From: Escherichia coli
GTDB taxonomy: Bacteria > Pseudomonadota > Gammaproteobacteria > Enterobacterales > Enterobacteriaceae
Length of the DNA: 64,000 nucleotides
Reading direction: 5' to 3' (one strand)
Assembly (NCBI RefSeq): GCF_024700885.2
Contig: NZ_CP117016.1
The notes beneath the pieces are model-generated. The model had not been told where the DNA came from, ran no database searches, and worked only from the letters and a program-made list of their open reading frames with translations. The translations under genes and the position numbers were made by a program. Shown in pieces: positions 1-59,987 of this stretch (the first letter of the stretch is position 1; each line of letters starts with the position of its first letter).

Positions 1-222
1 GTACTTTCGGTAGAAGCAACAAATTGGAATCTTGGGAATAAGGATGGTTATCAGCAACGCGCAAAAACAGCAGCATTCCCTGCGGGAAATAGCTGGCATG
101 ACGTAAGACTGGATAATCAACAACATATTGATAAGGCACTTCCAGGAAGAATAGAACGTCGCTGCCGTGATGTTATGCGGATAATGCTACCGCTGGTGAA
201 GGAGCTGGCGAAGGCGTCTTGA
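1..222 (+). CDS. iap: 3' end (last 73 codons) of an M28-family aminopeptidase gene, probably iap; 5' part lies upstream of the window
   Basis: Frame 1 is open from position 1 to TGA at 220-222, giving ...VLSVEATNWNLGNKDGYQQRAKTAAFPAGNSWHDVRLDNQQHIDKALPGRIERRCRDVMRIMLPLVKELAKAS*. The WHD..D motif resembles the C-terminus of M28 peptidases such as Iap. Identity is by recall, not search. Confidence 0.55.
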   Translation, partial: VLSVEATNWNLGNKDGYQQRAKTAAFPAGNSWHDVRLDNQQHIDKALPGRIERRCRDVMRIMLPLVKELAKAS

Positions 223-323
223 TGGGTTTGAAATGATTACTCCCTTGCCTGCAGGAAATCAATGCCACCAGAAACAGAGTATAAAAAAGGGGTGCAGGAG
301 GCCAAACTTTAACAATTCAATAC

Positions 324-342
324 GCGGGGTTTTACCCCCGCG
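324..342 (-). terminator. GC-rich hairpin (CGCGGGG-loop-CCCCGCG) 6 nt downstream of hokX stop; putative hok mRNA terminator
   Basis: Perfect 7-bp GC stem read directly; on the minus strand it is followed by the U-containing tract GUAUUGAAUUGUU. Confidence 0.5.
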
Positions 343-348
343 TGGTGG

Positions 349-501
349 CTACTTCTTCGATTCGTAAGCGAGAACTGCCTTAAACTCCATACCACGTTCT
401 CTGATACTCAACTCACACAACGAGTCGCCTACCATCAGCGTGAATCCCAGTACTGTACAACACAGTACGATGATTGCCACAAGGGCATATTTTGTCAGCA
501 T
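349..501 (-). CDS. hokX: Hok/Gef-family type I toxin (50 aa), hokX-like
   Basis: Minus-strand ORF not in the ORF track (under 60 aa): [50 protein letters not shown]. Hydrophobic N-terminal helix plus the C..E..R.G..E.A...YES signature of Hok proteins; GGAGG 7 nt upstream of ATG; stop TAG at 349-351. Confidence 0.75.
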
Positions 502-765
502 GTCTTGCCTCCCTGCAAAGAAGAGACTAACATTCGAATTGCTTAGGTTCGAACGCTGGCCTCAGGTTGATAGAAATATCGCCTGGGGCTTTTGTCCATC
601 TGGAACCTCGCGAATGCTTAACGCCAGACAGCCTCAAGCACCCAACTCCATTCTATACCTGTTAATTCTCCCTGCGATGTTCACCTTTAAATGCCGGAAT
701 GCTGCTCGCAAAATAAAAACGCCCCCATCATTTCTGACAGAGGCGTTTAATTTATCCGGCAATAT

Positions 766-1500
766 TTACCCTTCGTGTAACCCACATTCCCTTTTTAAGC
801 CAAAGAAACGCGTTTCTTCTTCCGCCATGCCGGGTTCCCATTTACGGGTTGTATGGGTATCGCCCACCGATAAATATCCTTCGTCCCATAATGGGTGATA
901 TTTCAGGCCATGTTTTTGCAGGTACTGATAAATAGTTCGGTTATCCCAGTCGATAATCGGCAGCACTTTAAATACGCCACGCTGAATTGCCAGCACCGGT
1001 AAATTGGCGCGGCTGCCGGATTGTTCACGGCGCAGGCCAGCAAACCAGGTTTGCGCGTTAAGTTCTTTCAGCGCCCGGTTCATCGGTTCGACTTTGTTGA
1101 TGTCATTGTACTTTTCAATGCCTTCAACGCCCTGCTCCCACAGTTTGCCGTAGCGCGCTTCCTGCCAGGCGGCGCTTTCGGTAGCGCGGTACACTTTCAG
1201 GTTGAGCTTGAGTTTGTCCGTTAACTCGTCAATAAAGCGGTAGGTTTCCGGGAACAGATAACCCGTATCGGTCAGGATCACCGGGATATCCGGGTGAATC
1301 TGATTCACCAGATGCAGGCTCACCGCCGCCTGAATGCCGAAACTGGAAGAAAGTACATATTCACCGGGCAGATTATCCAGCGCCCAGGCAACGCGGCCTT
1401 CAGCATCCAGTTTTTCCAGTTCGGCGTTAGTTTCTGCCAGCGCCAGAATGCGATCTACCTTCGGCAGTTCGTTCAGGGCGTTTAGATCGAGTTTGGACAT
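766..1500 (-). CDS. cysH: phosphoadenosine phosphosulfate (PAPS) reductase
   Basis: ORF 766..1653 trimmed to internal ATG at 1500 (244 aa, [25 protein letters not shown]...); recognisable CysH sequence; first gene of the cysJIH arrangement read 3' to 5'. Confidence 0.95.
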
Positions 1501-1521
1501 AGATTCCTCACTGTTTGCCTT

Positions 1522-1558
1522 GCCTGATGCGACGCTCACGCGTCTTATCAGGCCTACA
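1522..1558. repeat. REP (repetitive extragenic palindrome) in cysI-cysH intergenic region
   Basis: GCCTGATGCGACGCTCACGCGTCTTATCAGGCCTACA, the typical E. coli REP palindrome. Confidence 0.7.
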
Positions 1559-1573
1559 AGACCGGGCTGATGG

Positions 1574-3286
1574 TTAATCCCACAAATCGCGCGCCGGATC
1601 GAGCACCGGGCGAATGATGCCCGCACGCACCGTAAAGTCGCCGAAGCCTTCACCCGCTTCGCGCTCTTTCGCCCAGCGCCCTATCAGTTCATCAAGCGAC
1701 GCCAGGATTTCCGGCTCGGTGATGTTTTCTTTATACATCCGTGGGATACGTGTCCCAATGCGGTTGCCGCCAAGATGCAGGTTGTAGCGACCCGGCGCTT
1801 TCCCCACCAGACCCACTTCCGCCAGCATCGCGCGACCACAACCGTTCGGGCAGCCTGTTACACGCATCACGATATGCTCATCGCTGACACCATGTTTCGC
1901 CATTAAATTATCGATGTTGTCGATAAAAGACGGCAGGAAACGCTCCGCTTCCGCCATCGCCAGCGGGCAAGTCGGGAATGACACGCAGGCCATTGAGTTT
2001 TCACGTTGCGGCGTGACGGCATTCATTAACCCGCTTTCTTTGGCGATCTTATCGATCTTCGCTTTCTCGCTTTCCGGCACTCCGGCGATGATCAGATTCT
2101 GGTTCGCCGTAATGCGGAAATCACCTTTGTGGATCTTCGCGATCTCCAGCAGGCCGGTTTTCAGCGGACGCCCAGGATAATCAAGGATACGACCATTTTC
2201 GATAAACAGCGTCAGATGCCAGTTATCATCAATGCCCTTAACCCAGCCAATACGATCGCCGCGTCCGGTGAACTCATACGGGCGGATCGGTTCAAATTTG
2301 ATCCCCGCGCGACGTTCAACTTCCGCTTTAAACGTCTCAACCCCTACGCGCTCCAGCGTGTATTTGGTTTTGGCATTTTTACGATCGGTTCGGTTACCCC
2401 AGTCGCGCTGAGTCGTCACGACGGCTTCTGCCACCGCCAGCGTATGCTCCAGCGGCAGATAACCAAACTCACTCGCCGTGCGGGCATAGGTTTTCTTGTT
2501 GCCGTGCTCGATGGAAAGCCCACCGCCCACCAGCAGGTTAAAGCCCACCAGCTTGCCGTTTTCGGCGATCGCCACGAAGTTCATGTCGTTGGCGTGCAGA
2601 TCGATATCGTTCTGCGGCGGGATCACTACCGTGGTTTTGAACTTACGCGGCAGGTAGGTCTGACCAAGGATCGGCTCTTCATCAGTAGTGGCGACTTTTT
2701 CCTGATCGAGCCAGATCTCCGCATACGCGCGGGTACGTGGCAGCAGATGTTCAGAGATTTTCTTCGCCCATTCATATGCTTCCGCGTGCAACTGCGACTC
2801 GTAAGGGTTCGAAGTGCACAGCACGTTACGGTTCATATCGTTGGCGGTCGCCAGCGCATCAAGACCGACCGAGTGCAGCATCTGGTGCACCGGTTTGACG
2901 TTCTTTTTCAGAATGCCGTGGAACTGGAACGTCTGGCGGTTGGTCAGGCGAATGCTGCCATAGATGGTGTTTTCACCGGCAAATTTATCGATCGCCTGCC
3001 ACTGTTTGGTGGTAATCACCCCACCCGGCAGACGACAGCGCAACAGCATTGCATGACGTGGCTCCAGCTTCTGTTCAGCACGTTCGGCGCGGATGTCGCG
3101 GTCATCCTGCTGATACATGCCGTGGAAGCGGATCAGCAGGAAGTTATCGCCCTTAAAGCCGCCGGTCAGACCGTCGTTTAAATCTTCCGCAATGGTGCCG
3201 CGCAGGTAGTTGCTTTCAAGCTTCATGCGCTCGGCGTCTGTCAGTTTTCCTTCGACCACTAAAGGCCCTGGATGTTTTTCGCTCAT
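1574..3286 (-). CDS. cysI: sulfite reductase hemoprotein (beta) subunit
   Basis: 570-aa [25 protein letters not shown]...; siroheme/4Fe-4S Cys motifs near the C-terminus ([25 protein letters not shown]). Confidence 0.95.
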
Positions 3287-5085
3287 TAGTAGACATCTCG
3301 CTGATAACGGCGCTCTACGCGCAGCTCACTTAAAAATTCATCCGCCGCTTCGGTGTCCATGCCACCAAATTCGGCAATCACTTCCAGAAGTGCCTGCTCA
3401 ACGTCTTTCGCCATGCGATTAGCGTCGCCGCAGACATAAATGTGGGCACCGTCATTGATCCAGCGCCACAGCTCCGCGCCCTGTTCGCGCAGTTTGTCTT
3501 GTACATAAACTTTTTCTTTTTGGTCGCGCGACCAGGCAAGATCGATGCGGCTCAATACGCCTTCTTTCACGTAGCGCTGCCACTCCACCTGGTAGAGGAA
3601 ATCTTCCGTAAAGTGCGGGTTGCCAAAGAACAGCCAGTTTTTACCTGGCGCTTCGTCAGCGGCGCGTTGCTGCATAAAGGCGCGGAACGGCGCGATGCCG
3701 GTGCCTGGGCCAATCATAATCACCGGGGTTTCCGGGTTGGCTGGCAGGCGGAAGTTATCGTTATGTTCGATAAAGACGCGGACTTCGCCCTCTTCTTCCA
3801 CGCGATCCGCGAGGAAGCTGGAGGCACCACCGGCACGGGCTCGGCCTTCCACGTCGTAACGCACCACACCAACGGTGACATGTACTTCGTTCTCGACTTC
3901 CGCCTGCGAGGAGGCGATGGAATACAGGCGCGGGGTCAGCGGGCGCAGCAGGTTAATCAGCGCTTCGGCATCCAGTTGCGCCGGAGAGAAACGCACCATG
4001 TCAACAATCGGCGTGGTCGCGGCGTAATGCTGTAACTTCGCTTTATCGCCCACCAGCGGCAGCAGCGTTTCGCTGCGGGTAAGCGTGGCGTAGTTCTCAA
4101 CAATATTCGCGGTGTTGACGGTGAGTTCAAAGTGCCACTGGAGCGCTTCGCTCAGGGTCAGCGTTTTGCCCTCAACGGTGACAGGTTCATCGCCTTTCAG
4201 CCACAGCAGTTCGACAAGTTCTTTCACCAGTGCCGGATCGTTCTGATACCAGATGCCCAGCGCGTCACCCGGCTGATAACGCAGGCCAGAGTCACCTAAG
4301 TCAATTTCGATATGGCGAACGTCTTTTTCAGAGTTACGCCCGGTAATTTTCTGGTTAACCGAAAGGCTCGCCACCAGCGGCGCGTCTTTGCTGTACGGGC
4401 TGGTGTGGATTTCATTTACCGCGCCAGTAGCGACGGATTGCGAAGGTGCCGCGACAGGCGCACGGGACTTCAGAACATCAACCACGCGGGCGCGCCACTC
4501 GCTGGCAGCAGCCTGGTATTCAACGTCGGCATCGACACGGTCGAGCAGGCGTTCACCGCCCAGTTCCGCCAGCTTGCTGTCAAAATCTTTCCCGGACTGG
4601 CAGAAAAATTCATAAGAGCTATCGCCGAGGCTAAACACGGCAAATGCAGTGTTTTCCAGCTTTGGCGCTTTTTTGGAGAACAGGAACTTATGCAGCGCGA
4701 CGGCTTCTTCCGGCGGTTCCCCTTCCCCTTGCGTTGACGTCACCACGATGAGCAGTTTTTCGCTGGCGATTTGTTTGAATTTATAGTCGCCCGCGTTCAC
4801 CAGCTTAACGTTCAGTTTTGCCGCTAATAAATCATCGCGTAATGCTTCAGCAACCCGGCGCGCATTGCCGGTTTGCGAAGCGGAGATAATAGTTATACCC
4901 GGCATTTCTGCGGCGGGCGCAGGCGTCGCTGCAAGCGCTGCAGGCTGCTGGTTGAGTACGCCCCAGAAATAGCCAGAAACCCAGGCAAGCTGGGTGGGAG
5001 TTAAATCGGTCGTGGCCGCCTGAAGGCGTGCCAGTTGCTCCGGGTTCAACGGAAGCAACGCGGAAGGTGGGACCTGTGTCGTCAT
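3286..5085 (-). CDS. cysJ: sulfite reductase flavoprotein (alpha) subunit
   Basis: 599-aa [25 protein letters not shown]...; flavodoxin-like plus FAD/NADPH reductase domains; stop overlaps cysI start. Confidence 0.95.
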
Positions 5086-5843: not shown

Positions 5844-7115
5844 ATGGAAGACGACTGCGACATTATTATTATCGGTGCCGGCATTGCGGGCACCGCTTGT
5901 GCGTTACGCTGCGCGCGGGCAGGTTTATCCGTTCTGTTACTGGAACGTGCTGAAACCCCTGGCAGCAAAAATCTTTCTGGCGGGCGTTTATACACCCATG
6001 CGCTCGCGGAACTCCTCCCGCAATTTCATCTGACCGCGCCTCTTGAACGACGCATCACTCACGAAAGCCTTTCCCTGTTAACGCCGGATGGCGCAACGAC
6101 GTTTTCCAGCTTACAGCCCGGCGGAGAATCCTGGAGCGTATTACGTGCACGGTTCGATCCGTGGCTGGTTGCCGAAGCCGAAAAAGAAGGTGTCGAATGC
6201 ATCCCTGGTGCGACGGTGGATGCGCTGTATGAAGAAAACGGCAGGGTGTGTGGTGTCATTTGTGGTGACGATATTCTCCGCGCCCGTTATGTGGTGCTGG
6301 CAGAAGGTGCCAACAGCGTCCTGGCTGAGCGTCACGGGTTAGTGACTCGTCCTGCTGGCGAAGCGATGGCGTTGGGGATCAAAGAAGTGCTGGCGCTGGA
6401 AACATCCGCTATTGAAGAACGTTTTCATCTGGAGAATAACGAAGGCGCAGCGTTGCTGTTCAGCGGCGGAATCTGTGATGACTTACCCGGCGGCGCATTT
6501 CTTTATACTAATCAACAAACGCTCTCGTTAGGGATTGTTTGCCCGCTCTCTTCACTTACGCAAAGTCGTGTTCCAGCAAGCGAGCTGCTGGCTCGCTTTA
6601 AAACGCATCCGGCAGTGCACCCGCTTATCAAAAACACGGAATCACTGGAGTATGGTGCGCATCTGGTGCCAGAAGGTGGCTTGCACAGTATGCCAGTGCA
6701 ATACGCCGGTAACGGCTGGCTGCTGGTGGGCGATGCGTTGCGCAGTTGCGTCAATACCGGAATTTCCGTGCGCGGTATGGATATGGCGCTGGCTGGCGCA
6801 CAGGCGGCGGCACAAACGCTGATAAGCGCCTGCCTGCACCGCGAGCCGCAAAATCTGTTTCCGCTTTATCATCACAACGTCGAGCGCAGCCTGCTATGGG
6901 ATGTTCTACAACGTTATCAGCATGTTCCGGCGCTTTTGCAACGACCTGGCTGGTATCGGGCGTGGCCTGCGTTAATGCAGGATATTTCCCGTGATTTATG
7001 GGATCAGGGTGATAAACCTGTTCCGCCGCTGCGCCAGTTATTCTGGCGTCATTTACGTCGTCACGGCCTGTGGCATCTGGCGGGCGATGTTATCAGGAGT
7101 CTGCGATGTCTGTAG
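5844..7115 (+). CDS. ygcN: FAD-dependent oxidoreductase, FixC/ETF-QO-like
   Basis: ORF trimmed to ATG at 5844 (423 aa); N-terminal dinucleotide-binding motif DIIIIGAGIAG. Confidence 0.85.
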   Translation: MEDDCDIIIIGAGIAGTACALRCARAGLSVLLLERAETPGSKNLSGGRLYTHALAELLPQFHLTAPLERRITHESLSLLTPDGATTFSSLQPGGESWSVLRARFDPWLVAEAEKEGVECIPGATVDALYEENGRVCGVICGDDILRARYVVLAEGANSVLAERHGLVTRPAGEAMALGIKEVLALETSAIEERFHLENNEGAALLFSGGICDDLPGGAFLYTNQQTLSLGIVCPLSSLTQSRVPASELLARFKTHPAVHPLIKNTESLEYGAHLVPEGGLHSMPVQYAGNGWLLVGDALRSCVNTGISVRGMDMALAGAQAAAQTLISACLHREPQNLFPLYHHNVERSLLWDVLQRYQHVPALLQRPGWYRAWPALMQDISRDLWDQGDKPVPPLRQLFWRHLRRHGLWHLAGDVIRSLRCL

Positions 7116-7366
7116 CCCGTAATCTCTGGCGCGTTGCCGATGCGCCGCACATTGTTCCGGCTGACTCCGTTGAGCGCCAGACGGTACAACGGTTGATTAA
7201 CGCTTGTCCGGCTGGTCTTTTTTCGCTCACACCGGAAGGTGATTTACGCGTTGATTATCGCGGCTGCCTGGAGTGTGGCACCTGCCGTTTGCTGTGCGAC
7301 GAATCAACACTACAACAGTGGCGCTATCCGCCTTCCGGATTCGGCATCACCTACCGTTTTGGATAA
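7106..7366 (+). CDS. ygcO: ferredoxin-like protein, FixX-like
   Basis: ORF 7070..7366 trimmed to ATG at 7106 (86 aa, MSVARNLWRV...); Cys cluster CLECGTCRLLC; overlaps ygcN end by 10 nt. Confidence 0.8.
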   Translation: MSVARNLWRVADAPHIVPADSVERQTVQRLINACPAGLFSLTPEGDLRVDYRGCLECGTCRLLCDESTLQQWRYPPSGFGITYRFG

Positions 7367-7382
7367 ATAATAAGGATAATTT

Positions 7383-7958
7383 ATGCCCCTCTTACACCTG
7401 CTCCGCCAGAATCCGGTGATTGCTGCCGTTAAAGATAATGCCAGCCTGCAACTGGCAATCGACTCTGAATGCCAGTTTATTTCCGTGTTGTACGGCAATA
7501 TCTGCACCATTAGTCAAATCGTTAAAAAGATTAAAAATGCCGGAAAATATGCTTTTATTCATGTTGATTTGCTGGAAGGCGCGTCAAATAAAGAAGTGGT
7601 GATTCAGTTTTTGAAACTGGTGACAGAGGCGGACGGAATTATCAGTACCAAAGCCTCAATGCTGAAAGCAGCAAGAGCGGAAGGTTTTTTCTGTATTCAT
7701 CGCCTGTTTATTGTTGATTCAATTTCGTTTCACAACATTGATAAGCAAGTTGCGCAATCGAATCCGGATTGTATTGAGATCCTGCCAGGCTGTATGCCCA
7801 AAGTGCTGGGCTGGGTGACGGAGAAAATCCGCCAACCGCTGATTGCTGGCGGGCTGGTGTGCGATGAAGAAGATGCGCGTAATGCGATTAACGCAGGTGT
7901 CGTGGCGCTTTCCACCACGAATACCGGGGTCTGGACGCTAGCGAAAAAATTGCTTTGA
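7383..7958 (+). CDS. ygcP: GlpP-family (glycerol-3-phosphate-responsive type) transcription antiterminator-like protein
   Basis: 191-aa ORF, MPLLHLLRQNPVIAAVKDNASLQLAIDSECQFISVLYG...; AAGGA SD upstream; family assignment by recall. Confidence 0.8.
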   Translation: MPLLHLLRQNPVIAAVKDNASLQLAIDSECQFISVLYGNICTISQIVKKIKNAGKYAFIHVDLLEGASNKEVVIQFLKLVTEADGIISTKASMLKAARAEGFFCIHRLFIVDSISFHNIDKQVAQSNPDCIEILPGCMPKVLGWVTEKIRQPLIAGGLVCDEEDARNAINAGVVALSTTNTGVWTLAKKLL

Positions 7959-16591: not shown

Positions 16592-16605
16592 TGAACATAC
16601 CTGAA

Positions 16606-16877
16606 TGGTTATCCCCGCTGACGCGGGGAACTCGCCAGTGCCTGGTCATATGTGTAACACCTATCCGGTTTATCCCCGCTCGCGCGGGGAACTCTTGCTG
16701 TATAGAGATTATCGGCGTGGGATTGTCGGTTTATCCCCGCTCGCGCGGGGAACTCGTTTGCGGCTTGCAAACATTTTAATGCGTATTCGGTTTATCCCCG
16801 CTCGCGCGGGGAACTCCCAGCCCGACACAAATAATGCAGCATTGCGCGCGGTTTATCCCCGCTCGCGCGGGGAACTC
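16606..16877 (-). CRISPR. orphan type I-E-like CRISPR array: 5 repeats (29 bp; leader-distal one degenerate, 28 bp) and 4 spacers of 32 bp
   Basis: Repeats at 16606-16633 (degenerate TGGTTATCCCCGCTGACGCGGGGAACTC), 16666-16694, 16727-16755, 16788-16816, 16849-16877, consensus CGGTTTATCCCCGCTCGCGCGGGGAACTC. Spacers: GCCAGTGCCTGGTCATATGTGTAACACCTATC; TTGCTGTATAGAGATTATCGGCGTGGGATTGT; GTTTGCGGCTTGCAAACATTTTAATGCGTATT; CCAGCCCGACACAAATAATGCAGCATTGCGCG. No cas genes in the window. Confidence 0.9.
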
Positions 16878-17888: not shown

Positions 17889-18181
17889 AGCATTCTCTGT
17901 GAAGTGGATAATTGTTAATTATTGCAGATCCTGCCACAACAATCATGTCTTATTAACATTCTGTTACAGGCAGGTTTAAAGAAAAATGAGAAACAGATCG
18001 TTAATAATAAAAGGGAGTAACGTATTATGTCAGAAATAAATAAAGTAAAGGGATTTAATCATGTCAAAAACATTCACCAAAATTATACTTATTTTTTCTG
18101 TGTTCGTTTTTAATTATAACGAATCTCAAATTACCGATGCCGCCGTCAATTTATTTATCCAGCTTTAATGGGACATTTATA

Positions 18182-19113: not shown

Positions 19114-20427
<1,314 letters not shown>

Positions 20428-20499: not shown

Positions 20500-22152
<1,653 letters not shown>

Positions 22153-22363
22153 TTAGGTTGAAAAGACGATGGAATAACCAGGACGGGAAAGCAGTATACC
22201 CGAACATGACCTGTGCCACAAACTTTCATTATCCCTCCTCTTCGCCAGCGCACTATTGAAATCAGGAGTGAGAAAATAGCCCCTTTGGGGTAAATGTTTT
22301 TGACGCAAATCAAGCGCTTGTCATTTAAAAATGACACAAATGGCGCTTGACCGCGTAATTCCC

Positions 22364-23155
22364 TTAGAGATCAATTTCCTGCCGTTTTACCTGTTGCCAG
22401 ACTTCTTCCATTGTTTCGAGGTCAACACCTGTCATTTCCAGTCCACGCGCGGCAACAATACGCTCCACTTCGCGAAAACGACGCTCGAATTTTTCGTTCG
22501 CTTTTTGCAATGCGATTTCCGCTTTTGTCCCTAAATGACGAGCCAGATTGACTGTGGCAAACAGCAGGTCACCCATTTCCTCCTCCAGTTTAGCCTGGTC
22601 GACAACAGCCTGCCGCGCTTCGTACATCACCTCATCGATCTCTTCGTAGACTTTATCGACTACCGGGCCAAGCGTCGTCCAGTCGAAGCCAACGTTGGCG
22701 CAACGTTTCTGGATTTTTTGTGCGCGCATTAAGGCGGGTAAACTACGAGGAATATCGTCCAGCGCCGAATGCTGCGCTTTTTGCGCGCGCTCTTCGGTTT
22801 TGATCTCCTCCCAACGGGCGAGAACTTCGCGGCTGTTTCCGGCAGAACTGTCAGCAAAAACATGCGGATGGCGACGTTCTAATTTATCGCTGATCGCGGC
22901 GCAAATATCATTAAAGTCAAAGCGCCCTTCTTCCTGGGCCATTTGTGCGTAAAACACCACCTGGAACAGCAGATCGCCGAGTTCACCGCGCAGATCGTCA
23001 AAATCTTCACGGGCAATGGCGTCCAGCACTTCGTAGGTTTCTTCAAGGGTGTAAGGCGCAATGGTGGCAAATGTCTGCTCTTTATCCCACGGGCAGCCGT
23101 TTTCCGGGTCGCGCAGGCGCTGCATAATAGTGAGCAAACGGTCGATTTGATTCAT
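22364..23155 (-). CDS. mazG: nucleoside triphosphate pyrophosphohydrolase MazG
   Basis: 263-aa ORF, MNQIDRLLTIMQRLRDPENGCPWDKEQTFATIAPY... Confidence 0.93.
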   Translation of the reverse strand: MNQIDRLLTIMQRLRDPENGCPWDKEQTFATIAPYTLEETYEVLDAIAREDFDDLRGELGDLLFQVVFYAQMAQEEGRFDFNDICAAISDKLERRHPHVFADSSAGNSREVLARWEEIKTEERAQKAQHSALDDIPRSLPALMRAQKIQKRCANVGFDWTTLGPVVDKVYEEIDEVMYEARQAVVDQAKLEEEMGDLLFATVNLARHLGTKAEIALQKANEKFERRFREVERIVAARGLEMTGVDLETMEEVWQQVKRQEIDL

Positions 23156-23225
23156 TGAATTGTCCTGAAAATTGCGGGTCTGTCAGGTGGAAACCTGTGA
23201 CCAGAATAGAAGTGAGTAAGTAACA

Positions 23226-23561
23226 CTACCCAATCAGCACGTTAATTTTGGCTTTAATGAGCTGTAATTCCTCTGGGGCAACCTTTCCTTTCTTCGTTGC
23301 TCCTCTTGCCCGCCAGGCGATACTTTTTACCTGATCAGCTAACGCTACGCCATCACGTTCCTGACCGGATAGAACAACTTCGAACGGATATCCTTTTGAT
23401 TGCGTTGTACAAGGAACACACAGACACATACCTGTTTTGTTGTTGTACATGAACGGACTCAGGACAACAGCCGGACGATGTCCGGCTTGCTCGCTACCTT
23501 TTGTCGGGTCAAAATCAACCCAAATCAGATCGCCCATATCGGGTACGTATCGGCTTACCAT
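23226..23561 (-). CDS. mazF: MazF toxin endoribonuclease
   Basis: 111-aa [40 protein letters not shown]... Confidence 0.95.
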   Translation of the reverse strand: MVSRYVPDMGDLIWVDFDPTKGSEQAGHRPAVVLSPFMYNNKTGMCLCVPCTTQSKGYPFEVVLSGQERDGVALADQVKSIAWRARGATKKGKVAPEELQLIKAKINVLIG

Positions 23562-23809
23562 TACCAGACTTCCTTATCTTTCGGCTCTCCCCAGTCGATA
23601 TTCTCGTGGAGGTTTTCCGGCGTGATGTCGTTGACCAGTTCAGCAAGCGTAAATACGGGCTCTTTACGCACTGGCTCAATAATTAATTTGCCATCCACCA
23701 GGTCAATCTTCACTTCATCATCAATATTCAGATTGAGCGCCTGCATTAACGTAGCCGGGATCCGCACCGCTGGTGAATTTCCCCAACGCTTTACGCTACT
23801 GTGGATCAT
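23561..23809 (-). CDS. mazE: MazE antitoxin
   Basis: 82-aa [36 protein letters not shown]...; stop overlaps mazF start. Confidence 0.95.
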
Positions 23810-23825
23810 AACCCTTTCCTCAAAC

Positions 23826-23876
23826 CGCTATCATATGTAGATACAGTATATATCAATCTACATTGTAGATACGAGC
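23826..23876 (-). promoter_or_regulatory. mazEF promoter/operator 'alternating palindrome'
   Basis: Minus-strand reading GCTCGTATCTACAATGTAGATTGATATATACTGTATCTACATATGATAGCGG matches the known MazE/MazF-bound palindromic operator. Confidence 0.7.
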
Positions 23877-23886
23877 TAATTTCGGC

Positions 23887-26121
23887 CTAACTCCCGTGCA
23901 ACCGACGCGCGTCGATAACGTCTGGCACCTGATTGAGTTTACCCAGCACGCGGCCCAGCACTTGCAGATTGTAAATCTCAATGGTCATGTCGATGGTCGC
24001 CAGTTGCTGTTTGGTGTCGCTACGGCTGGCAACGCCAAGTACGTTCACCTTCTCGTTGGCGAGAATGGTCGTGATATCACGTAACAACCCACTACGATCA
24101 TTAGCCACCACGCGGACCACCAGCGAATATCCGGCGGAGTAGCTCTCGCCCCATACCGCGTCAACAATGCGTTCTGGCGCATGGGAGCGCAGTTCCGCCA
24201 GTTGCTCACAGTCTGCACGATGCACTGAAATACCGCGTCCCTGAGTAATGAAACCAACAATTTCATCACCAGGAATCGGCTGACAGCAGCGCGCGATGTG
24301 GTGCATCAGGTTACCGACCCCTTCAACCACCACACGACCGTTATCTTTACTGCGGTTTTGCGGCGTATAGCTTTTTTGCTGAAGTTGCTTCAGCGCGGCG
24401 GCATCCTGCTCTTCGGCACTCGGCTTATTAAATTGCGATTGCAGGAAGTTCACCATCTGATTGAGACGGATATCCCCGCCACCAATTGCCGCCAGCAACT
24501 CGTCGACATCATTGAAGTTGTAACGCGGCAGCAGATGTTTTTCTGCTTCTTTCAGGCTGATCCCCAGATGTTCCAGCTCGTCGTCAAGGATTTGCCGCCC
24601 AGCCAGAATGTTTTTGTCACGGTCCTGTTTACGGAACCAGGCGTGAATTTTCGAACGCCCACGGCTGGTTGTGACGTAACCGAGGTTTGGGTTTAACCAG
24701 TCACGGCTGGGGTTCGGCTGTTTCTGGGTAATAATTTCAATCTGGTCTCCCATCTGCAGCTGGTAGGTGAACGGCACAATGCGCCCGCCTATTTTTGCCC
24801 CGATGCAGCGGTGCCCGACATCACTGTGGATGTGGTAAGCGAAGTCCAGCGGCGTTGATCCCGCAGGCAAATCAACGACGTCACCTTTCGGCGTAAAGAC
24901 GTACACCCGGTCGTCAAAGACCTGGCTGCGTACTTCGTCGAGCATTTCGCCGGAATCAGCCATCTCTTCCTGCCACGCAATCAGTTTACGCAGCCAGGCA
25001 ATTCGGTCTTCATGTCCCGAACGTGCGCCGCCAGCTGCCGCGCCCTCTTTATATTTCCAGTGCGCAGCAACACCCAACTCTGCATCTTCATGCATCTGTT
25101 TGGTGCGGATTTGGATCTCTACGGTTTTGCCACCTGGTCCCAGAACCACGGTATGAATAGACTGATAACCGTTTGGTTTCGGGTTAGCGACGTAATCGTC
25201 AAACTCATCCGGCAGGTGGCGATAGTGAGTGTGCACTATCCCCAGTGCGGCATAACAATCCTGTAAACGCTCGGCGACAATACGTACCGCACGCACATCA
25301 AACAGCTCATCGAAGGCGAGGTTCTTTTTCTGCATTTTGCGCCAGATGCTGTAGATGTGTTTCGGACGACCATACACTTCAGCTTTAACGCCTTCAGCTT
25401 TCATCTCAGCGCGCAGATGGCCGACAAACTCTTCGATATAGTGTTCGCGGTCGAGACGGCGTTCATGCAGCAGTTTTGCGATGCGTTTGTATTCGGTCGG
25501 GTGGAGATAACGGAAGCAGTAATCTTCCAGCTCCCATTTCAGTTGTCCAATCCCAAGACGGTTCGCCAACGGCGCGTAGATATTGGTGCACTCTTTTGCC
25601 GCCAGTACGCGTTCATCTTCCGGCGCGTCTTTTACTTCGCGCAGATGAGCAATACGCTCTGCCAGTTTGATGACCACGCAGCGAAAATCATCGACCATCG
25701 CCAATAACATCCGGCGAACGTTATCGACCTGTTCGGAGGAAACAGAATCGGTATGCGTCGCTTTCAGCTGGCGGATCGCCGCCATATCACGCACGCCGTG
25801 AATAAGGTTAACGACCGACTTACCGACGCACTCACGCAGCACATCTTCGCTGACTACGTTGGCATCCGCCAGAGGGAACAGCAGCGCCGCCCGCAGCGTG
25901 TCAATGTCCATACTTAATGTCGAGAGGATCTCCACCATCTCAACACCACGCCACAATAACAGACTGGCATCCGGATGCCCCTGCGTCTGTTGCAGACAAT
26001 ACGCCCAGGTTTCGGCTAAGCACTCACACGACTTCTGGCTGGTAATACCCAGACTTGCGATCCATTTTTCCGGATCAAATTCACCAGCCTTATTGATATG
26101 TGCACTTCTTACCGCAACCAT
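23887..26121 (-). CDS. relA: GTP pyrophosphokinase, (p)ppGpp synthetase I
   Basis: 744-aa ORF, MVAVRSAHINKAGEFDPEKWIASLGITSQKSCE... Confidence 0.97.
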   Translation of the reverse strand: MVAVRSAHINKAGEFDPEKWIASLGITSQKSCECLAETWAYCLQQTQGHPDASLLLWRGVEMVEILSTLSMDIDTLRAALLFPLADANVVSEDVLRECVGKSVVNLIHGVRDMAAIRQLKATHTDSVSSEQVDNVRRMLLAMVDDFRCVVIKLAERIAHLREVKDAPEDERVLAAKECTNIYAPLANRLGIGQLKWELEDYCFRYLHPTEYKRIAKLLHERRLDREHYIEEFVGHLRAEMKAEGVKAEVYGRPKHIYSIWRKMQKKNLAFDELFDVRAVRIVAERLQDCYAALGIVHTHYRHLPDEFDDYVANPKPNGYQSIHTVVLGPGGKTVEIQIRTKQMHEDAELGVAAHWKYKEGAAAGGARSGHEDRIAWLRKLIAWQEEMADSGEMLDEVRSQVFDDRVYVFTPKGDVVDLPAGSTPLDFAYHIHSDVGHRCIGAKIGGRIVPFTYQLQMGDQIEIITQKQPNPSRDWLNPNLGYVTTSRGRSKIHAWFRKQDRDKNILAGRQILDDELEHLGISLKEAEKHLLPRYNFNDVDELLAAIGGGDIRLNQMVNFLQSQFNKPSAEEQDAAALKQLQQKSYTPQNRSKDNGRVVVEGVGNLMHHIARCCQPIPGDEIVGFITQGRGISVHRADCEQLAELRSHAPERIVDAVWGESYSAGYSLVVRVVANDRSGLLRDITTILANEKVNVLGVASRSDTKQQLATIDMTIEIYNLQVLGRVLGKLNQVPDVIDARRLHGS

Positions 26122-26168
26122 CGTCCTCTCCTTTAGGGACCAGACCTGCCGAAATCGGCAAATCGCAA

Positions 26169-27470
26169 CTATTTAACGCGCGAGAAAAGTACCATCGATT
26201 CCAGATGTCCCGTGTGTGGGAACATATCCAGCATCGCCAGTCGCGCAATGGTATATCCTGCTTTTAATAACGCTTCGCTATCCCGAGCCAGCGTTGCAGG
26301 GTTACAGGATACATAAACTATACGAATAGGTTCCAGTTTTATAATTTGCTGCATAACACCTGCGGCACCTGCTCGCGCCGGGTCCAGCAACACTTTATCG
26401 AAGCCGTTTTTCGCCCACGGCTGCTTTGTGACATCTTCTTCAAGATTTTCGTGATAAAACGTCACATTGTGTAAGCCATTAAGACGCGCATTCTGCTGGC
26501 CTTTTTCCACCAGCGCCGGAACACCTTCTACACCCACCACACTGGCAGCTTGTGTCGCTAATGGCAGTGTAAAGTTGCCCATACCGCAGAACAAATCCAG
26601 TACGCGATCTTCAGGTTGCACATCCAGCCATTCCAACGCACGCGCTACCATTTTTTGGTTCACACCCGCATTGACCTGAATAAAATCGCGCGGGCTAAAA
26701 GTTAAGCGCAACCCGTTTGAGTCATACCAGGGCATCTCACCAGCGACGGTTTCGAGTATCTCACTATCGGGGGCGAGATACAGATCCAGGCCTTCAGAAT
26801 GCGAAAAGCGTTCCAGTTTTTCGCGATCAGCCGAACTTAGCGGTGCGGTATGGCGCAAAATCATCAGCGTGCCGCTGGTTGCCTGTACCAGTTCAACATG
26901 ACCAAGATGGCGCATAGCTTGTAAGCTGTCCAGGCATGCCCTGACTTTGGGCAGCAATGCTTCAAGTTGGGGCACTAAAATGGGGCATTGTTTAACGTCG
27001 ACAATGTCACTGGAGCCCGCTTTGCGAAACCCCATCTGAAGTTGCTGTGTTTTCGGTAAGTAGTTCAGACTTAAACGCGCGCGACGGCGATAGCCCCAGG
27101 GAACATCGGCGATCACTTCAGAGACTTCGTGTTTCATTAATCGGGCGAGTGCCGCACTTTTGCTTCGCTGCTGTAAATCCACGCTGGCGTGTTGTTGCTG
27201 ACAGCCGCCGCATACGCCAAAATGAGGGCAGCGTGGCGTTTCGCGTTCCGGGCTATCGCTTAACCGGCGCACGACTTTAGCGCGGGCGTATTGTTTTTTA
27301 TCTTCAGTAACAGTAACTTCCGCGTTTTCCTGTGGCAATAATCCAGGAATAAATAACGCTTTGCCGTTATGTCGTGCCACGCCCTGACCAAAAGAGTCGA
27401 GGTCGTTGACTGAAACAGTTATGATCTGACGCGTCGTCGTGCGTCGTTTTGCAGAGTAGAATTGCGCCAT
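26169..27470 (-). CDS. rlmD: 23S rRNA (uracil1939-C5)-methyltransferase
   Basis: 433-aa [40 protein letters not shown]...; TRAM plus SAM-MTase with Fe-S Cys. Confidence 0.92.
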
Positions 27471-36624: not shown

Positions 36625-36993
36625 AATAAAAAAAGGGAGCACTGTATTCACAGTGCTCCCGGTTCGTTTCGCAGCATTCCAGCTACTTTTGTTGCTCCCT
36701 GCTCATCCTTGACAACTTTTCCTCTGGCCTTGCGGCCAATCGTTCATCCTGAACTATTGCTTCCTGCTCACACCACCCCGATGTGATACTTCATCCTGAA
36801 GTGTCCCTGGCCTTCCTGACCCACCGAATCATCCTGACCGGTTCTCATTCTCCATCCTGGAGGTGTCCTTTAACGCGTCCTGCGTCATCCTCTTCGCTTC
36901 ATCCAGAAGCCTTTCCCTGAAACACCATCCTGGTGTGTCCTTCAGAAGTGTCATCATCCTGATGTTCACTTCGTTGTCTGACTCCCTGTCGAC
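36625..36993 (-). ncRNA. csrB: CsrB small RNA (CsrA-sequestering)
   Basis: Minus-strand transcript of about 369 nt from GUCGACAGGGAGUCAGACAACGAAGUGAACAUC (5' end at 36993) to hairpin GGGAGCACUGUGAAUACAGUGCUCCC plus U-run (36627-36660). At least 8 exact CATCCT (AGGAUG in the RNA) plus many more CAGGA/AGGA motifs on the plus strand. Confidence 0.95.
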
Positions 36994-55163: not shown

Positions 55164-55369
55164 ACTTCCTGAGCCGGAACGAAAAGTTTGATCGGAATGC
55201 GTGTTCTGGTGAACTTTTGGCTTACGGTTGTGATGTTGTGTTGTTGTGTTTGCAATTGGTCTGCGATTCAGACCATGGTAGCAAAGCTACCTTTTTTCAC
55301 TTCCTGTACATTTACCCTGTCTGTCCATAGTGATTAATGTAGCACCGCCTAATTGCGGTGCTTTTTTTT
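55164..55369 (+). ncRNA. gcvB: GcvB small RNA
   Basis: ACTTCCTGAGCCGGAACGAAAAGTTT... with GU-rich TGTGATGTTGTGTTGTTGTGTTTGCAATTGG region, ending in terminator AGCACCGCCTAATTGCGGTGCTTTTTTTT; divergent from gcvA. Confidence 0.93.
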
Positions 55370-59691: not shown

Positions 59692-59768
<77 letters not shown>

Positions 59769-59801
59769 ATTAAAATTTGATGAAGTAAAGCAGTACGGTG
59801 A

Positions 59802-59878
<77 letters not shown>

Positions 59879-59910
59879 ATCAAATTTGATGAAATAAAGC
59901 AGTACGGTGA

Positions 59911-59987
<77 letters not shown>

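Follow-up and report, generated by a model that had tools for sequence, protein, structure and literature searches.

The window analysed here, a 64,000-nucleotide stretch of the Escherichia coli chromosome that differs from strain MLI114 by one mismatch over its 64 kb, carries on its minus strand the genes relA (GTP pyrophosphokinase, 744 aa; 23887–26121, with its TAG stop at 23889–23887), mazE (antitoxin, 82 aa; 23561–23809), mazF (ACA-specific endoribonuclease toxin, 111 aa, K93 allele; 23226–23561) and mazG (nucleoside triphosphate pyrophosphohydrolase, 263 aa; 22364–23155). The last three are identified by their open reading frames (ORFs), by Pfam and NCBIfam matches and by identity to K-12. 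The relA ORF, the neighbour upstream of mazE, is annotated as such in the near-identical genome NZ_CP117013.1 and in K-12, from which it differs by one nonsynonymous and 75 synonymous changes (comparison over positions 22200–26200). All four genes have the lengths of their K-12 counterparts, bearing out the original prediction that mazE, mazF and mazG are intact and lie directly downstream of relA. The relA stop and the mazE ATG are separated by 77 nt, and the mazF stop and the mazG ATG by 70 nt. The overlap of mazE and mazF, predicted to be one codon, is in fact a single base (23561), shared by the TAA stop and the ATG start in the sequence TAATG and annotated likewise in K-12. The 1,601-bp locus finds a match in 5,425 of 5,426 complete E. 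coli genomes, and wherever the match is full-length the annotation reads relA, mazE, mazF, mazG. A 146-aa plus-strand ORF (23400–23840), antisense to mazE and mazF, is a mechanical reading frame, and nothing was found to support its status as a gene.

The antitoxin MazE is 100% identical to K-12 MazE and to the MazE chains of PDB entries 1MVF and 1UB4 (2MRU is also matched), and it scores 52.9 bits against Pfam PF04014 and 196 bits against the NCBIfam equivalog NF007312 (cut-off 113). It has an AbrB-type DNA-binding N-terminal domain and binds MazF through a C-terminal tail that is disordered. Its gene, encoding this AbrB/MazE swapped-hairpin domain, stands directly upstream of the toxin gene, and the TAATG junction is of the kind expected to permit translational coupling. 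MazF shares 110 of 111 residues (99%) with its K-12 counterpart, the sole difference being T93K, and matches PDB entries 3NFC, 5CK9, 5CR2 and 1UB4, with 110/111 identity to the first two. Its scores of 84.5 bits against Pfam PF02452 (cut-off 23.1) and 227 bits against NCBIfam NF007386 (cut-off 120) place it within the PemK/MazF fold and the curated MazF equivalog; all three Maz proteins exceed their NCBIfam equivalog cut-offs. The essential residues of MazF, which in E. coli numbering we take to be E24, R29 and T52, are all retained, and among 60 MazF orthologues they are found in 60, 59 and 59 sequences, respectively. Arg29 and Thr52 correspond to R25 and T48 of B. subtilis MazF, and the role of these equivalents is described in PMC10893535; our literature search on the two residues in the E. 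coli protein yielded only indirect support, via the B. subtilis and S. thermophilum equivalents. An E24A variant of MazF is represented by PDB 9PME.

MazG is identical to the K-12 protein at 260 of 263 residues (98.9%), differing by E106G, S109R and Q117E. Pfam PF03819 is matched in two stretches, corresponding to two MazG domains, and the NCBIfam models NF007113 (369 bits, cut-off 208) and TIGR00444 (418 bits, cut-off 148) are both exceeded, with structural matches to PDB 3CRA and 3CRC. The six acidic active-site residues (E171, E172, E175, E192, E193 and D196; PMC10014863) are unchanged relative to K-12, as would be expected of a tandem-domain nucleoside triphosphate pyrophosphohydrolase. 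Just past the mazG stop, a terminator-like hairpin (22303–22356, minus strand) is followed by UUUGCGUC. The RNA fold of the surrounding 22285–22370 reaches −25.1 kcal/mol (z = −3.64), a stability that none of 200 shuffled sequences attained, and the hairpin presumably acts as a terminator. The mazF–mazG spacer gave no significant fold (z = −0.22), and no known RNA family in Rfam matches anywhere in 22364–23900.

Upstream of mazE lies the mazEF operator, an alternating palindrome on the minus strand. The 50-nt ‘cab’ MazE operator oligonucleotide of Zorzini et al. 2015 (PMC4333400) matches positions 23826–23875 without a mismatch, within one base of the predicted extent (23826–23876), and is matched in none of 100 shuffles. 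The palindrome core, ATCTACA-N-TGTAGAT-N13-ATCTACA, occurs once in the window and never in shuffled sequence. Within the operator, arm c occupies 23864–23870, the middle arm 23856–23863, the ATATAT core of site a 23848–23853 and arm b 23835–23842; an inverted-repeat search shows that the middle arm pairs either with arm c or, alternatively, with arm b. The whole operator is identical to that of K-12, and its palindrome core is invariant across seven E. coli alleles. According to the literature, the operator overlaps promoters P2 and P3, and their placement here follows published positions because a consensus promoter scan did not recover either. Near mazE the scan returned one match only, an implausible ATGATA-18-TATGAT that overlaps the start codon.

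A Fis-like site (23873–23887, minus strand) adjoins the operator on its upstream side. The K-12 sequence, GGCCGAAATTTGCTC, fits GNNYRWWWWWYRNNC, which we take to be the Fis consensus, and it probably corresponds to the published FIS site; the window reads GGCCGAAATTAGCTC, in which a T-to-A change at 23877 relative to K-12 breaks the match. Searched on both strands against a background of 14 matches per 128 kb, the consensus is matched by K-12 and three other alleles and is unmatched in the window and in alleles L008 and L009. Since the match is broken, the promoter of this lineage might be activated differently across growth phases. On the opposite strand lies the antisense RNA aMEF (ameF, b4844; 23521–23920). 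Its position is carried over from K-12, whose annotation has the ncRNA at 7052–7451 of the K-12 locus sequence, and adding an offset of 16469 gives the window coordinates; its function is described in PMC8749433, and it is not an Rfam family. A putative aMEF promoter, TTGCTC-17 nt-CAAAAT, can be read within mazF at 23487–23515, its hexamers being recognized from the sequence alone, and the plus-strand segment containing it (23485–23530) is the same as in K-12.

With these features in place, the locus is almost certainly the canonical chromosomal type II toxin–antitoxin system mazEF (chpA) of E. coli, occupying its customary place between relA and mazG. The system at this site is already known: its structures have been solved and its operator mapped, and its literature, contested in part, spans decades. 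The copy in the window is very probably intact and functional, since MazE, MazF and MazG are 100, 99 and 98.9% identical to their K-12 counterparts, the operator is identical and T93K falls at a variable position. The original prediction of a likely functional pair is thus upheld, and alignment with characterized MazEF shows the MazF catalytic residues unchanged.

Where that prediction went too far was in treating mazE, mazF and mazG as a three-gene module. Alignment by blastn with the ST131 strain PS_131_S11 places breakpoints at window positions 23196 and 23887 and so delimits a 690-bp accessory mazEF cassette (23197–23886, minus strand), defined by its absence from mazEF-less E. coli. In such genomes, relA directly adjoins mazG, and the cassette is replaced by a 53-bp spacer that contains a hairpin (−28.9 kcal/mol, z = −5.6). 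This 53-mer is present in 1,001 of the 5,426 complete E. coli genomes, exactly once in each, which rules out a dispersed REP element; the mazEF-positive genomes number 4,415. The indel boundaries leave mazG outside, so that it is not co-inherited with mazEF, and the 1,001 genomes that retain relA–mazG without the pair indicate that mazG is independent of it. The mobile unit is therefore mazEF alone, with mazG belonging to the core relA–mazG operon, in agreement with a 2020 review (PMC7167474) that describes relA–mazG as an undisturbed bicistronic operon in strains without mazEF.

The steps by which the system would work are known from K-12 and are carried over to the window copy by near-identity (99–100% for MazE and MazF). 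MazF dimers would shut down translation by cutting single-stranded RNA at ACA, and the disordered C-terminal tails of one MazE dimer would serve to neutralize two MazF dimers. The AbrB-type N-terminal domain of MazE is expected to bind the adjacent operator sites c, a and b, repressing P2 and P3, with MazF enhancing this binding. As MazE would be the labile partner, a stop in synthesis would free MazF. MazF may also cleave its own mRNA, and aMEF may further modulate mazEF expression. The downstream NTP pyrophosphohydrolase gene mazG is predicted to be co-transcribed, with mazEF placed as an accessory cassette in the intercistronic spacer of the core operon.

The linkage of the cassette to relA appears to be purely physical. 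Physical linkage and co-transcription of mazEF with relA are documented in the literature, and the predicted coupling to the stringent-response gene holds as far as adjacency is concerned, but not as a functional link, none being established according to PMC7167474. Adjacency to relA is not in itself evidence for functional coupling. One possible, if doubtful, reading is that selection favours the cassette chiefly for phage defence (abortive infection), or that it simply persists as a selfish element (addiction), and that the response to starvation stress is not its main role. Deletion of mazEF raises P1 infection loads (PMC7167474), the phage T4 protein Alt ADP-ribosylates MazF (PMC4803016), and the patchy occurrence of the cassette within E. 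coli would suit an accessory or mobile element. However, a PADLOC scan found no defence model matching MazE, MazF or MazG at E ≤ 0.001, the cassette carries no mobility genes and is located in a housekeeping operon and not in a defence island, and the sequence does not discriminate between the proposed roles.

A wiring of mazE–mazF–mazG as one module into the stringent response is unlikely. It would have ppGpp made by RelA stop mazEF transcription, so that MazE decays and MazF acts, after which MazG, inhibited by the MazEF complex, lowers ppGpp. This published model goes back to Aizenman 1996 and Gross 2006 and is summarized in PMC4803016 and PMC8749433, and the arrangement of the locus is compatible with it: the genes are neighbours on one strand, the relA–mazE spacer shows no terminator-like fold (z = −0.14) and a hairpin is found only past mazG. 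Against it stands the retention of relA–mazG without mazEF in the 1,001 genomes. The 2020 review, moreover, recognizes no established functional link between mazEF and its neighbouring cistrons, describes the ppGpp-related models as mutually contradictory and reports that deletion of five toxin–antitoxin systems, mazEF included, causes no fitness defect (PMC7167474). The same source places a parDE system of Salmonella in the same spacer, which suggests a hot-spot for insertions and not a co-adapted function.

Having assigned the locus to canonical mazEF, we can describe the copy in the window as a rare lineage allele, distinguished by MazF K93, MazG G106/R109/E117 and one SNP in the Fis-like site. 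Codon 93 of mazF (23283–23285) reads AAG in place of the K-12 ACA, so that one of nine ACA sites in mazF is lost; the remaining counts (two in mazE, eight in mazF and 11 in mazG) lie at the means of synonymous-codon shuffles and give no signal of ACA depletion or enrichment. Among the 5,426 complete E. coli genomes, just 24 contain the 41-mer that carries the K93 allele. Lysine is nevertheless the most frequent residue at this position among the 60 MazF orthologues (K in 23, T in 10 and R in 10), and, since E24, R29 and T52 are also kept, K93 is unlikely to inactivate MazF. Elsewhere in the species, MazF substitutions occur at conserved positions, such as C48Y, which alters a residue shared by all 60 orthologues, and frameshifted natural alleles of mazF and mazE exist (P0033 and P0007), showing that certain strains do undergo decay of the locus. 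The nucleotide diversity of mazE appears very low (π = 0.003, against 0.014–0.023 in the other coding segments compared), which may conceivably reflect constraint from the overlapping antisense RNA aMEF, and MazF seems to show an excess of amino-acid variants.

Whether these differences matter for regulation is a more speculative question. It is very unlikely that K93, the lost ACA self-cleavage site and the broken Fis consensus together shift the regulatory set-point of mazEF and make this allele a natural autoregulation variant; were that so, Fis activation in exponential phase would be reduced and the self-decay of mazF mRNA by MazF slightly lowered. Least credible of all is a pair that is sequence-intact but attenuated and effectively silent, with T93K weakening MazF or altering its binding by MazE and the SNP at 23877 cutting expression through loss of the Fis-consensus match: the confinement of the allele to so few genomes would suit it, as would the substituted and frameshifted alleles elsewhere in E. 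coli, which fit recurrent relaxed selection, but position 93 most often holds K and frequently R, the catalytic and other highly conserved MazF residues are unchanged, MazE and the operator are the same as in K-12, and variability of the Fis-like stretch in three of seven alleles suggests weak constraint and not a decisive role. For the canonical mazEF pair identified here, the value of the analysis lies in a clean annotation, in which the size of the overlap, the mobile unit, the meaning of the relA adjacency and the T93K substitution have been corrected or added. As for the SNPs particular to this lineage, they could at best furnish a small natural-variation study.

The closest known system is the K-12 locus itself (chpA; b2784–b2781), which has the same gene order, strand, gene lengths, TAATG overlap and spacers, and the same flanks, with rlmD and barA upstream and pyrG and eno downstream. 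Nucleotide identity is 97.4% to MG1655 over a 13.6-kb aligned stretch and 97.1% to K-12 DH10B across the 1,601-bp locus, a divergence of about 2.6–2.9% that includes the MazF, MazG and 23877 differences described above. The mazEF-less operon, represented here by ST131 PS_131_S11 and in the literature by UTI89 (phylogroup B2), has orthologous and syntenic relA and mazG genes, and homology restarts precisely at the stop codon of relA on one side and, on the other, 41 nt before the mazG ATG; it differs in having the single-copy spacer with its strong hairpin where the window has the cassette. More distant are Kid/Kis (PemK/PemI) of R1/R100 and ChpBK/ChpBI of E. coli, which, like MazEF, combine a PF02452 toxin with an AbrB-type antitoxin in antitoxin-then-toxin order. 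Kid (PDB 1M1F) is matched at E = 4e-9, and the ChpB and ChpS models score 55.6 bits (cut-off 129) and 34.6 bits (cut-off 101), sub-threshold values that mark distant paralogues. Unlike mazEF at relA–mazG, these systems lie in other genomic contexts and are governed by other operators.

Judged by its sequence, the window consists entirely of E. coli chromosome. Its alignment to strain MLI114 (NZ_CP117013.1) spans the full 64 kb and shows a single mismatch, and 5,425 of 5,426 complete E. coli genomes contain a match to a 1,601-bp locus query. The six-frame ORF list places on the minus strand relA (23887-26121, 744 aa), mazE (23561-23809, 82 aa), mazF (23226-23561, 111 aa), mazG (22364-23155, 263 aa), pyrG (20500-22137, 545 aa) and eno (19114-20412, 432 aa), a gene set and order annotated identically in MLI114 and K-12 MG1655. 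Every element named in the original prediction, namely mazE, mazF, mazG, the operator and the relA neighbour, is found. The spacers measure 77 nt between relA and mazE and 70 nt between mazF and mazG, while the overlap of mazE and mazF, described as one codon, is actually 1 nt (base 23561, within the stop/start TAATG), as in the K-12 annotation.

The three reading frames are intact, as had been proposed, and their products align closely with the characterised proteins. MazE is 100% identical to that of K-12, MazF carries a single change (T93K) and MazG three (E106G, S109R and Q117E). Pfam recognizes MazE_antitoxin, PemK_toxin and two MazG domains, and the NCBIfam equivalog scores far exceed their cut-offs for MazE (196 bits against 113), MazF (227 against 120) and the NTP pyrophosphohydrolase (369 against 208). 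Structures in the PDB match these sequences exactly or almost exactly (1UB4, 1MVF, 2MRU, 3NFC, 5CK9, 5CR2 and 3CRA). The MazG substitutions all lie outside the first MazG domain match (Pfam best stretch 27-100) and away from the acidic active-site residues E171, E172, E175, E192, E193 and D196 (PMC10014863), which are unchanged.

The T93K change was examined in an alignment of 60 MazF orthologues, 57-99% identical, collected by protein search. Column 93 holds K in 23, T in 10, R in 10 and Q in 5 of them, other residues being rarer, so lysine is the commonest state of the family and the K-12 threonine a minority one. E24 is conserved in 60/60, R29 in 59/60 and T52 in 59/60 orthologues, and the window MazF keeps all three; the equivalents of the Arg and Thr form the essential catalytic pair of the Bacillus subtilis and S. 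thermophilum MazF toxins (PMC10893535). With these residues in place and K93 common in the family, the catalytic-residue check reveals no inactivating change, and the window MazF is very probably an active toxin. Within E. coli the K93 allele is rare, the 41-mer centred on the codon being found in 24 and its K-12 counterpart in 3,613 of 5,426 genomes, and these 24 are approximately the same set as the 25 genomes whose identity across the entire locus is 99% or more. Two substitutions convert codon 93 from ACA to AAG, leaving eight ACA triplets, the MazF recognition triplet, in the mazF mRNA compared with nine in K-12; since the ACA counts of mazE, mazF and mazG do not depart from the expectation of synonymous-codon shuffles, this loss is given no weight.

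The operator proves both real and specific. The published 50-nt 'cab' fragment used in work on MazE binding (Zorzini et al. 2015, PMC4333400) matches 23826-23875 with 0 mismatches, against 0 matches in 100 shuffles. Its core, ATCTACA-N-TGTAGAT-N13-ATCTACA, occurs once in the window, and a repeat search found the middle arm (23856-23863) to be complementary to both 23864-23870 and 23835-23842, the double complementarity that defines the 'alternating palindrome'; the ATATAT core of site 'a' lies at 23848-23853. Between 23876 and the mazE start the sequence equals that of K-12, the sole change in the 77-nt spacer being T to A at 23877 (minus strand).

This substitution falls in a Fis-like site (23873-23887). 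The K-12 15-mer GGCCGAAATTTGCTC, whose first base is also the final base of the relA stop codon, fits on both strands the degenerate Fis core consensus GNNYRWWWWWYRNNC, which has a background of 14 matches per 128 kb. The SNP alters position 11 of the 15-mer and the match is lost in the window. Of the five further alleles examined, L008 and L009 lack it as well, their 15-mer being broken at a different position; K-12 and the three other alleles keep it. The identity of the 15-mer with the published Fis site, and any effect of the SNP, are putative.

Coordinate transfer from the K-12 annotation, where the antisense RNA ameF/aMEF (b4844) lies opposite the mazF 5′ end, all of mazE and the promoter, positions it at 23521-23920 on the plus strand. 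The plus strand at 23485-23530 is identical to K-12 and contains TTGCTC-17-CAAAAT, a plausible promoter; published work describes aMEF as a stimulator of mazEF expression (PMC8749433). A hairpin past the mazG stop (22303-22356, z = -3.6) is plausibly the operon terminator.

Among seven alleles (the window, the K-12 locus and L005-L009), a sample too small for a firm conclusion, nucleotide diversity is 0.0034 for mazE, 0.0143 for the last 314 nt of relA, 0.0145 for mazF, 0.0210 for the 77-nt relA-mazE spacer and 0.0228 for mazG. The value for mazE, which aMEF overlaps entirely, is thus about 4-fold below those of mazF and the relA 3′ end and nearly 7-fold below that of mazG. The palindrome core is invariant and MazE shows one change (A19T), while four of the seven alleles each bear a different MazF change: T93K, C51Y (O111:H8), C48Y (strain 99-3311, at a cysteine invariant in the 60 orthologues) and M9T+S80R. 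There are hints here of an antitoxin gene and operator held constant while the toxin drifts. Frameshifted mazE/mazF products are also present in public E. coli genomes (P0007 and P0033 of the protein search): one is a 193-aa frameshifted MazE running into the MazF frame, and another a MazF frameshifted past residue 79, with 28 member sequences. In the public assembly of ST131 strain PS_131_S11 a frameshift is annotated for pyrG (L002:3562-5200); pyrG encodes CTP synthase and is normally essential, and this frameshift probably reflects faulty sequencing or assembly rather than biology.

Elsewhere in the window, a CRISPR array (16605-16877, between queE and ygcE; annotated 'CRISPR' in MLI114) comprises five 29-nt type I-E-like repeats and four spacers with a 61-nt periodicity. 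It could be an orphan array in this strain, because the interval between cysH (ORF 766-1653) and iap, where K-12 carries the type I-E cas operon, is without cas genes (window 1-1700). A 50-aa Hok/Gef-family hok ORF (349-501, minus) and the sok antitoxin RNA (486-643, minus; Rfam, 111.7 bits) lie there instead. Full-length CsrB (36625-36984, minus; 382.9 bits) and GcvB (55164-55369, plus; 198.4 bits) sRNAs occur in their usual E. coli context, three near-identical tandem tRNA-Met genes with 110-nt spacing lie at 59692-59984 (plus; tRNA-Met in the MLI114 annotation), and the counterpart of the K-12 cell-envelope stress protein gene yqcG, at about 18027-18168, is a frameshifted pseudogene in the MLI114 annotation.

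From sequence identity with the characterised K-12 system, we infer a mechanism as described in its literature (PMC4333400, PMC8749433, PMC4803016, PMC7167474). MazF would act as an ACA-specific endoribonuclease, neutralised by the C-terminal tails of MazE and able to cleave its own mRNA; MazE, with the help of MazF, would repress P2 and P3 at sites c, a and b, Fis would activate transcription, and MazG would hydrolyse NTPs. PADLOC models gave no match to MazE, MazF or MazG. The physiological role of mazEF is disputed in the literature (PMC7167474); the candidates are programmed cell death, reversible stasis, phage exclusion and selfish persistence, among which the sequence does not discriminate.

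The designation of mazE-mazF-mazG as one module is not supported: it is mazEF alone that comes and goes as a unit within E. coli. In about one-fifth of E. coli genomes the locus query is matched over its mazG portion only, and relA has mazG as its immediate downstream neighbour in mazEF-less genomes such as ST131 PS_131_S11 and RMDEC465. Similarity between the window and such a genome breaks off right at the relA stop codon (23887) and picks up again at 23196, 41 nt ahead of the mazG start codon (ATG). The intervening 690 bp (23197-23886), comprising the Fis-like site, operator, mazE, mazF and 29 nt past the mazF stop, are replaced by a 53-bp spacer (L002:2448-2500, and L010). This 53-mer is present in 1,001 complete E. 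coli genomes, all keeping relA-mazG, and mazEF in about 4,415, the two being mutually exclusive. These boundaries and this distribution therefore identify mazEF alone as an accessory unit, and mazG is part of a core relA-mazG pair. The 53-bp spacer forms a strong hairpin immediately past the relA stop codon (-28.9 kcal/mol, z = -5.6), while the window's relA-mazE spacer has no significant fold (z = -0.14). With a single copy per genome in the 1,001 genomes, the 53-mer does not qualify as a dispersed REP element.

The locus has previously been described in full detail, and the original prediction stands as an observation with one small correction and is partly supported as an interpretation. 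Its coupling of mazEF to relA is upheld as physical linkage only, because no functional link with other cistrons has been demonstrated in the literature, where ppGpp-based models of mazEF activation are mutually contradictory (PMC7167474); co-transcription is taken from the literature only (PMC8749433, PMC4803016, PMC7167474). The accessory nature of mazEF is likewise described there: strains without mazEF, such as UTI89, have relA-mazG as an uninterrupted bicistronic operon, and in Salmonella a parDE system occupies the same relA-mazG spacer (Fraikin et al. 2020, PMC7167474).
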